Below are positions 24,267 to 24,712 of a stretch of 58,020 nt of DNA, one piece after another; the first letter of the stretch is position 1, and every line of letters starts with the position of its first letter. Source of the stretch: Rickettsia typhi. Lineage in GTDB: Bacteria > Pseudomonadota > Alphaproteobacteria > Rickettsiales > UBA1997. The stretch covers positions 1-58,020 of the forward strand of contig CAMDCJ010000001.1 of the NCBI GenBank assembly GCA_945890035.1, read 5' to 3'. Made by a program: the position numbers and the translations under genes. The notes under the pieces are model-generated. The model searched no databases, was not told where the DNA came from, and worked only from the letters and a program-made list of their open reading frames with translations.

Positions 24267-24712
24267 ATAAAAGGCTTCGGGTTTTAGCTCCCCCCTTGAG
24301 GGGGAGCAGACGAAAATGTCTTAACGGTAGTTAAGACATTTGAGTCGTGGGGGGTCAAAAAAGCTTATAGCGACAACGATTTTAAGATTATGTAAAAAGT
24401 TGAAATGAAAAAAATTCAAAAAAGACAATTTTTGATTTTGTTTTTAACGCAAGAAGATACATTTCTAATCACCCCTCACCCTAACCCTCTCCCCGCCTTC
24501 GGGGAGAGGGTTAGGGTGAGGGGTTTTTATTTTAAAAGTCAAATAAAGAAATTGACTTTTTTGAAAAATTATTTTTTGAAATTTTTACTTTGGCTTGAAA
24601 TCGATTATAATCTAGGCTTTTCTGACCCCCCACGTCTCCGCGAATTTAACTACCGTTAAATTCTCGTAGCCCGCTCCCCCTCAAGGGGGGATCTACAGCC
24701 CGAATCTTTTTC
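24267..24712. repeat. ~410-450-nt giant imperfect inverted repeat (composite palindromic element, copy X-ii)
   Basis: The left arm (24286-24363) is gctccccccttgagggggagc..aaatgtcttaac-ggta-gttaagacattt..gtggggggtcaaaaaagc. The right arm (24616-24693) is gcttttctgaccccccac..gaatttaac-tacc-gttaaattc..gctccccctcaaggggggatc. The flanks aggcttcgggttttag and ctacagcccgaatct are also complementary. Confidence 0.85.
24470..24523 (+). repeat. Perfect 25-bp GC-rich hairpin nested at the centre of X-ii (terminator-like)
   Basis: acccctcaccctaaccctctccccg - cctt - cggggagagggttagggtgaggggt, followed by tttttatttt. There are no mismatches in the stem. Confidence 0.9.

Follow-up and report, generated by a model that had tools for sequence, protein, structure and literature searches.

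A mosaic palindromic repeat family with covarying hairpin cores, probably non-autonomous, in AT-rich freshwater Rickettsiales

Background

The closest described relatives of the element analysed here are the mosaic palindromic repeats of bacteria. Repetitive extragenic palindromic (REP) sequences and the related bacterial interspersed mosaic elements (BIMEs) and REPINs are short GC-rich extragenic hairpins, which occur in mosaic clusters with other motifs, mostly as head-to-head dimers and in many cases as heterodimers; their sites are downstream of genes and between convergent ones, and RAYT Y1 transposases mobilise them. The REPs of E. coli are also the precedent for hairpins that block exonucleases or insulate transcription. 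REP-type repeats form head-to-head heterodimers downstream of genes, BIME-1 (RIP) has an IHF site between two inverted REPs, and the CGTC class of REPs, which is alphaproteobacterial and rickettsial, has no dedicated transposase (PMC3733652); the comparison with alphaproteobacterial palindromic repeats was also drawn from PMC10969869. The element, named X-ii, is an island of nested inverted repeats in a stretch of bacterial chromosome of 58,020 nt (contig CAMDCJ010000001.1, deposited as Rickettsia typhi; GC content about 32%), which is called the window in the following.

The Rickettsia palindromic elements RPE-1 to RPE-10 and the CGTC REPs have in common with X-ii a host lineage at the level of the order, palindromic repeats of 100-150 nt without known transposase, and the coexistence of several families; the CGTC REPs also share the head-to-head dimers. 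Neisserial intergenic mosaic elements (NIMEs) consist of RS units flanked by 20-bp dRS3 inverted repeats and form, like X-ii, mosaic islands next to variable gene cassettes. Bacterial MITEs (transposable elements of miniature size with inverted repeats) such as Correia/NEMIS, ERIC and BOX (A-Bn-C) are small, non-coding and multi-copy, possess inverted ends, are modular in the case of BOX and can fold into long hairpins in transcripts; these traits, too, are found in X-ii. A sequence-only reading of the window had regarded X-ii as a MITE-like element with ~80-nt terminal inverted repeats (TIRs). According to the present analysis, it belongs to the REP/RPE/BIME/NIME class of mosaic palindromic repeats, as a new family.

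Results

We consider X-ii to be probably an island of an undescribed mosaic, non-autonomous family of palindromic repeats, which is characteristic of an AT-rich freshwater clade of Rickettsiales. The basic unit of this family is a self-folding core of about 87 nt and not a giant hairpin. The 87-nt core is composed of GCTTTTyT-GACCCCCCACG (the C6 foot), a 17-bp hairpin with the apex TTAAC-TACC-GTTAA, the dinucleotide C(C/T), and GCTCCCCCTCAAGGGGGGAGC, which forms a GC hairpin of 21 nt. The apex AAC-TACC-GTT and the CACG of the foot are essentially invariant, and the stem covaries freely; its variants form 21 clusters. One subfamily of cores carries GCAAC/GTTGC instead of TTAAC/GTTAA.

Related loci were collected by an exact-pattern scan, in which each species was represented by one genome. 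At least 72 loci were found; those listed are the basis of all family counts given below, and labels such as L014 or L094 designate the individual loci compared with the window. All but one of the 72 listed loci (71) are from lake metagenome-assembled genomes (MAGs) labelled Rickettsiales, Alphaproteobacteria or 'Rickettsia typhi', and many of the exact-pattern matches lie at contig ends. A covariance model of the core, R1, was trained on 52 distinct cores and then run on the window and on the 72 sources listed. It identified 128 cores in these sources, nearly all of which are freshwater Rickettsiales MAGs.

The hairpin structure is kept by compensatory change. On the R1 alignment, 91.9% of the cells are paired versus 76.9% after shuffling, and double-sided changes occur in 22 of 25 pairs; not one of 500 shuffles reached any of the measures. 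If the partners were slid by 1-3 columns, pairing fell to 33-57%. RNAalifold, applied to an unfitted MAFFT alignment, predicted the same long hairpin with 10 covarying pairs.

Most neighbouring cores are placed head to head: 35 divergent (-,+) pairs stand against 7 '++', 7 '--' and 3 '+-' arrangements in the 72 sources. The gap of the divergent pairs is mostly 265-272 nt (about 268), and the whole form of ~440 nt was seen in at least 11 genomes; for 24 of the 35 singleton cores, the expected position of the partner falls past the end of the locus. Read from the centre outward, an arm contains a box (AAAATCAAGAAATyGnCTTTTTTGAA...), a spacer of ~45 nt, the 87-nt core, and T modules. The canonical interior thus comprises reverse-complemented spacer, reverse-complemented box, an AT-rich asymmetric centre of ~100-118 nt in either orientation, box, and spacer. 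In 71 of 79 arms, the box is 79-82 nt away from the C6 foot, regardless of the spacer type. These pairs bear out a multi-copy, non-coding family with mirror-image ends, as had been proposed from the window alone. The accompanying claim that only the termini are constant has to be given up, as the canonical interiors are conserved too, both in the distance of the box and in the centre; it was an artefact, because the three copies present in the window are atypical.

The nested giant inverted repeat described in the sequence-only reading was recovered at its place. A repeat search gave two sets of inverted arms, I2 (24269-24334/24646-24711; 66 nt, 79%) and I1 (24342-24445/24535-24638; 104 nt, 71%), and the region 24267-24712, folded as single-stranded DNA, reached -130.8 kcal/mol compared with -49.0 +/- 4.9 for shuffles (z = -16.6). 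The three sub-modules said to be mirrored in the arms were located on both sides, in mirror order: TTAACTACCGTTAA at 24321-24334(-) and 24646-24659(+), with 5 occurrences in the window and 0.47 expected from shuffles; TGACCCCCCACG at 24346-24357(-) and 24623-24634(+), with 6 occurrences and 0.45 expected; and the GC hairpin at 24287-24307(-) and 24673-24693(+), with 4 occurrences and 0 expected. Complementarity does continue beyond the GC hairpins, for ~18 nt, which are the start of a T module on both sides.

What could not be upheld is the interpretation of the arms as matched TIRs. The sequence identity of arms is 0.69 within a pair and likewise 0.69 between arms of different elements. Different stem variants are combined in 32 of the 35 pairs; the same variant occurs in 3, where random pairing within genomes predicts 6.9 (P ~0.025). 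X-ii itself follows this rule, with GACTCAAATGTC in the left and GTCTCCGCGAAT in the right core. Because the arms differ in variant and are no more alike than unrelated arms, each arm folds on itself; and since paired arms do not constitute a matched hairpin, the giant hairpin is a by-product of head-to-head placement. The portion of the palindrome with the highest stability appears to be avoided. In accordance with a self-folding module, cores are also found singly, in tandem (the '++' and '--' arrangements mentioned above) and as chimeras with a recombination point at the loop.

Recombination has brought the modules into many arrangements. After most cores come 1-4 tandem T modules of ~76 nt. 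A palindromic D module of 44-50 nt (..CGCTAAAAATAGCCGTTTAGGCTATTTTT..) occurs in the window at 3128-3171, 2776-2822 and 2606-2660; the former two copies, and those in at least five other loci (L014, L036, L037, L048 and L060), interrupt the 5' arm of the GC hairpin at one and the same point, being either a repeat inserted into a repeat or a propagated variant of the core. In chimeric hairpins (e.g. in L059 and L040), the arms of two variants are joined at the loop, and unpairable ones persist. Units of box, centre and box are also found with another outer hairpin (F), which replaces spacer and core. An open reading frame (ORF) of ~110 aa, running from the centre through the arm, was rejected as coding, because the length of the arm varies by 1-3 nt.

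The islands are located at the 3' ends of genes, mostly between convergent ones. Eighteen islands are flanked on either side by an ORF of 150 aa or more; convergent genes enclose 13 of them and co-directional genes 5, whereas none lies between divergent genes. As ~8 of the 53 gene junctions in the window are convergent (~15%), the binomial probability of 13 out of 18 is near 1e-7. Of the 128 cores, a single one reaches into an ORF of this size, at the 3' end of the latter. The genes next to cores are assorted housekeeping genes; a recurrent neighbour was not found beside the cores of the related loci, merely housekeeping orthologues. Scans for sigma-70 promoters and intrinsic terminators gave counts not above those of shuffles, and no U-tract follows either of the core hairpins on either strand. 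The right spacer of X-ii holds one promoter-like match (TTTACT-16-TATAAT), the position of which is not conserved across the family. The idea of a small-RNA gene with the box as promoter was dropped, because promoter scans were no higher than shuffles and promoter-like sites are neither enriched nor positionally conserved. A CtrA box (TTAA-N7-TTAA), GANTC sites and parS were dropped as candidates, as they disagree in spacing or sequence.

The content of the islands turns over between genomes that are ~94% identical. X-ii is present in contigs of the same strain (99.94% identical), and X-iii, a second pair at 51648-51939, is present in strains that are 96.8-98.5% identical, with differences at 2 of ~284 positions of cores and interior. 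The T module beside X-iii (51932-52000) deviates at ~22 of 70 positions from its counterparts in L082, L083 and L085 (~97% identical), which looks like gene conversion from another T copy. With genomes of 93-95% identity (L092; L094, from a contig of 1.52 Mb), collinearity breaks exactly at islands, namely at 47129-47428 and 51378-52143. At the site of X-iii between ccmE and parB, L091-93 possess no core but box and half of the centre only, L094 has one core plus an extra gene for an outer-membrane protein, and L089 has a weak core. Downstream of astE, L091-93 have a core, in place of which the window contains two tandem copies of a separate element, A (see below); both are absent in L082. Hence the copies are no relics fixed in synteny: close relatives differ in which of them they possess, and the strict synteny that the sequence-only reading had named as evidence for ancient fixed structures was not observed.

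The site of X-ii is variable as well. A relative whose RecJ is 76% identical shows an overlap of recJ with nth and lacks 23930-27044 entirely; ~20 kb of it contain no core. Strains with identical Nth carry GmrSD-type (type IV restriction) genes beside nth, not a methyltransferase and an endonuclease, with a breakpoint near 27005. The slot between recJ and nth is thus occupied by a C5-methyltransferase and a presumed restriction endonuclease in the window, by GmrSD-type genes in L097-L099 and by nothing in L074-76; this junction is a hot spot for defence genes.

With respect to mobility, Pfam scans of ~40 ORFs of the window revealed housekeeping genes and the C5-methyltransferase and no transposase or integrase, in agreement with the sequence-only reading. 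The autonomous partner which that reading suggested looking for was not seen in the window or in ~0.6 Mb of related loci, which the search covered. The related loci contain neither an ORF of 110-450 aa with GC hairpins within 400 nt on both sides nor a (-,+) pair of cores 0.5-5 kb apart. A target-site duplication was not definable: T arrays and other modules hide the outer ends, and no clean filled/empty pair of sites was found for a core pair.

X-ii lies between recJ (22139-23929, +) and an unclassified ORF, presumed to encode the endonuclease, which overlaps the gene of the C5-methyltransferase (24807-26947, -); nth and murC follow beyond. The location beside a restriction-modification cassette stands, as the island ends 7 nt short of the stop codon of the endonuclease (24807-24809); its extent has to be corrected from 24267-24712 to 24269-24799. 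On the left (all minus strand), a T module remnant of ~18 nt at 24269-24286 lies outside the left core; its sequence agrees with the beginning of the T consensus (...CGGGCTnTAGCTCCCC), and in I2 it is paired with 24694-24711. The left core (24279-24365; R1 98.6 bits, E = 3e-25) contains the GC hairpin at 24287-24307, the 17-bp hairpin at 24309-24346 with the apex TTAAC-GGTA-GTTAA (also found as local repeat I9), and the G6 foot CGTGGGGGGTCA at 24346-24357. It is followed by the left spacer (24366-24407), which is of the 'TTCATTTCAACTTTTTACATAATCT' type also found in L006, L031, L042, L054 and L069, and by the left box aaaaaaattcaaaaaagacaatttttgatttt (24408-24439), which is the reverse complement of AAAATCAAGAAATyGnC-TTTTTTGAA and lies within I1.

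The centre of X-ii (24440-24534, +) is atypical: the canonical sequence is replaced by a GC-rich 30+30 hairpin at 24466-24529 (CCCCTCACCCTAACCCTCTCCCCG/CGGGGAGAGGGTTAGGGTGAGGGG; repeat I4, 93% complementary), which is terminator-like on the plus strand only. This hairpin is the sole part of X-ii with BLAST matches outside the clade. The matches are multi-copy intergenic repeats, in up to 26 places per record, on plasmids of Rhizobium, Sinorhizobium, Azospirillum, Enterobacter and Pantoea; apart from it, BLAST showed no similarity to plasmid records. The repeat type of the central hairpin has a far broader distribution than the remainder of the island. The right half (all plus strand) consists of the right box aaagtcaaataaagaaattgacttttttgaaaaa (24535-24568), a spacer (24569-24614) of the type 'GAAAAATTATTTTT..TTTACTTTGGCTyGAAAyCG..ATTATmATCTAgGC', which also occurs in L032, L033, L051, L058, L059, L063 and L071, and the right core (24615-24701; R1 91.9 bits, E = 2e-23) with C6 foot (24623-24634), 17-bp hairpin (24634-24671) and GC hairpin (24673-24693). 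Two T modules, at 24694-24755 and, partial, at 24756-24799, match the T consensus GGGAGCTAsAGCCCG..TTGyGAG..TTTTTGTAAA..GTAGGGGTGTAAGCCC.

In total, R1 detected five full cores and one remnant in the window. Of the two further copies postulated, the one at 51656-51931 proved to be a true pair, while that at 2759-3187 has a complete core on the right only. The true pair is X-iii, with cores at 51648-51734(-) and 51853-51939(+); its interior comprises only 118 nt, as a deletion removed the centre and fused both boxes. The right core of the other island, X-i, is at 3066-3195(+) and scores 67.1 bits over 130 nt; its GC hairpin carries, within the 5' arm, a nested D module of 44 nt (3128-3171). The left end of X-i is a GC hairpin only; the nearest G6/C6 motif, TGACCCCCCACG at 2370-2381, belongs to a separate core remnant at 2347-2389(-), of which only the foot is left (15.8 bits).

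Discussion

X-ii and its relatives are extragenic, lie 3' of genes and form head-to-head dimers and mosaic clusters, as REPs and BIMEs do. They differ from REP, BIME and REPIN in a main hairpin of 17 bp with hypervariable stem and invariant AAC-TACC-GTT apex, in arms of ~170 nt, and in a spacing of the pairs of ~268 nt instead of tens of nt; moreover, no RAYT-like gene is situated between hairpins in the related loci examined. The GTAG tag of REPs is not a feature of the family: in 67 copies, the flanks of the 21-nt GC hairpin read TGTA|G (19), TCTA|G (18), CTAA|G (14) or otherwise (16), and the G of the supposed tag is a covarying base of the stem. CGTC REPs, which include RPE-4 and RPE-6, are defined by an unpaired CGTC tag, a stem of 8-9 bp starting with A-T pairs, a loop of 4-5 nt and a CCA tail; the core, in contrast, has 17 pairs and a CACG foot followed by paired variable bases (GTC, GAT, GAC, GGC), and lacks a CCA tail. 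In-frame insertion into genes, as known from RPEs, is not a property of the cores, given the single overlap with an ORF reported above; the RPEs were compared by their description. By analogy to NIMEs, the T arrays may be seen as tandem units of ~56 nt plus a palindrome of ~20 nt (..CCCTCAAGGGGGGAGC..), but the sequences are unrelated, and nothing indicates that the hairpins serve as targets of phages or IS110-type elements. Unlike in bacterial MITEs, neither a target duplication nor a parent insertion sequence (IS) was found, and the ends are independent self-folding modules, which also occur alone.

We envisage that the modules are copied or reshuffled in trans by a putative enzyme, which would read the shape of the hairpin plus the invariant apex and foot, much as REPs are recognised by HUH/Y1 enzymes. 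The spread would be aided by homologous recombination and by gene conversion between copies, and modules would persist where promoters and coding sequences stay undisrupted. Two different stem variants per pair may keep the long palindrome imperfect and hence tolerable. An effect on the host, for example stabilisation of converging mRNAs by hairpins in their 3' untranslated regions (UTRs), would be only secondary. We thus infer a structure-specific enzyme and selfish spread, and several observations weigh against both. A mobilising enzyme was found neither in the window nor in ~0.6 Mb of related loci, and neither a target-site duplication nor a core pair that had been inserted or excised precisely was encountered. 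All strain differences at the level of cores are structurally messy, with no clean insertion boundaries, so that recombination or deletion alone could explain the turnover. The strand test yielded 76 A.C versus 33 G.T cells, 36 of the A.C cells being due to one pair. Finally, apex, foot and box are strongly kept across genomes with RecJ identities of 61-76%, which could reflect a host function instead. In a doubtful but specific variant of this reading, the core would be the recognition site of a dedicated, putative protein conserved in the clade, and the head-to-head heterodimers would constitute a vertically inherited replicator of the REPIN/RAYT kind in a streamlined alphaproteobacterium. 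The recognised hairpin would then be free in sequence except for an invariant AAC-UACC-GUU apex and a C6/G6 foot, a domesticated HUH/Y1-like enzyme or another structure-specific nuclease or recombinase would be a candidate for the protein, and the system might set the borders of the exchange slot for defence cassettes as well.

That the ~440-nt unit is a classical MITE, i.e. an internally deleted IS with the cores as TIRs, which is cut and pasted by a transposase encoded elsewhere, is unlikely in our view. The constant layout of the divergent pairs in at least 11 genomes, with inverted ends around a short (less than ~600 nt) non-coding multi-copy unit, the fixed distance of the box from the end, and the differences in copy content between close strains agree with it; in addition, the box resembles what we take to be an IHF site (WATCAANNNNTTR), presumably as in several transposon ends. 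Yet single cores, tandem cores and cores joined to other modules exist beside the pairs, and the two ends are mostly different stem variants with no more similarity than unrelated arms. The outer boundary is blurred by T arrays, a target duplication is missing, and the window contains no transposase; nor did the related loci provide a widely spaced (-,+) pair, an ORF between GC hairpins or a recurrent neighbour of the cores that could represent the parent. Strong covariation and an invariant loop would suit a functional RNA, with cores acting in the 3' UTRs of convergent genes, or small RNAs starting from the boxes, that block 3'-5' exonucleases or insulate converging transcription. The enrichment of islands between convergent genes and their absence between divergent ones point the same way, as does the fact that, by symmetry, both converging mRNAs would carry the same, G-rich strand of the nearest core, which folds better in 41 of 44 variants. 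This folding advantage, however, is in part due to a constant loop term, and one position in one subfamily accounts for most of what is left. The lack of U-tracts, promoter-like sites that are neither enriched nor consistently placed, the persistence of unpairable chimeric hairpins, the absence of an Rfam family and the gain and loss of islands between near-identical strains, which an essential element would not show, make a functional RNA rather improbable. It is very unlikely that the hairpins are recombination or attachment sites like integron attC or Neisseria dRS3/NIME and mark the borders at which cassettes, here restriction systems, are swapped. X-ii does abut a slot with strain-variable cargo, and hairpins with conserved shape and variable sequence, together with chimeras crossing over at the loop, recall single-strand recombination sites; but most islands flank housekeeping genes without variable cargo, the junction of the slot on the nth side is devoid of a core and is the only side visible in the GmrSD strains, and no integrase or recombinase is encoded nearby.

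As a probably non-autonomous member of the palindromic mosaic repeats, the family offers unusually good material for the question of how repeats without transposase, such as RPEs and CGTC REPs, spread. It combines a clear structural signature (covarying stems, fixed apex and foot) with a modular, countable architecture; its host is so abundant in lake metagenomes that filled and empty sites are already visible in hundreds of near-identical contigs, and insertion, excision and gene conversion could therefore be followed in public reads. For a search for the enzyme, a complete genome of 1.52 Mb exists. The repeats fragment the MAG assemblies of the clade, as indicated by the many matches at contig ends; they change housekeeping proteins at the C-termini and flank a hot spot of restriction systems. 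Should they be purely selfish junk, the practical value would shrink to a covariance model with which the genomes of the clade can be masked and annotated. All findings to date fit within known biology.

Additional observations

Database searches gave little beyond the clade. A scan of viral contigs for the family returned 0 matches, and a literature search for the motifs no relevant occurrence. At the gathering threshold of Rfam, only a tRNA-Phe passed in the window, so that no family is available for the element; a permissive Rfam search over 24399-24579 produced generic long-hairpin matches, e.g. IS605-orfB-I with 38 bits against a threshold of 94 and miRNA precursors. Look-ups of exact protein sequences gave no record for RecJ and only the same strain for a TrbC-like protein.

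Lake MAGs labelled 'Rickettsia typhi' (L002, L005, L007 and others; assemblies CAMCSJ01 and CAMDJZ01) contain the repeats by the dozen, and the identity of their RecJ to that of the window is only ~61%. True R. typhi and R. prowazekii have been reported without such repeats (PMC3733652); the MAGs with this label are mislabelled members of the freshwater clade.

Gene content varies at the repeat islands, because two genes of L094 are absent from the window: an ORF of 685 aa without Pfam domain at the astE island (2428-4485) and an outer-membrane beta-barrel gene in the ccmE-parB island (9025-9687). In L078, L079 and L080, the same endonuclease gene as in the window is followed by ~130 nt of different sequence and then by the start of a second methyltransferase gene, which is 90% identical to 26757-27014 of the window; this layout suggests a tandem or alternative arrangement of the restriction cassette.

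The separate A element is palindromic, 125-133 nt long, and has inverted ends of 38 nt. It occurs at 23926-24058, at 47091-47360 (two tandem copies) and at 51338-51484, where recJ, astE and ccmE, respectively, take their stop codon or their last codons from it; this fusion to the 3' ends of genes is a likeness to RPEs. The copy at recJ (23926-24058, 133 nt) is missing in L073, a contig of the same species, and RecJ has accordingly 599 aa (in a cluster of 97 sequences) versus 596 aa. Within the species, this amounts to a clean polymorphism of filled and empty sites. At 24109-24148, between the A element and X-ii, the window contains four tandem units of 10 nt (TAATCTCACA).

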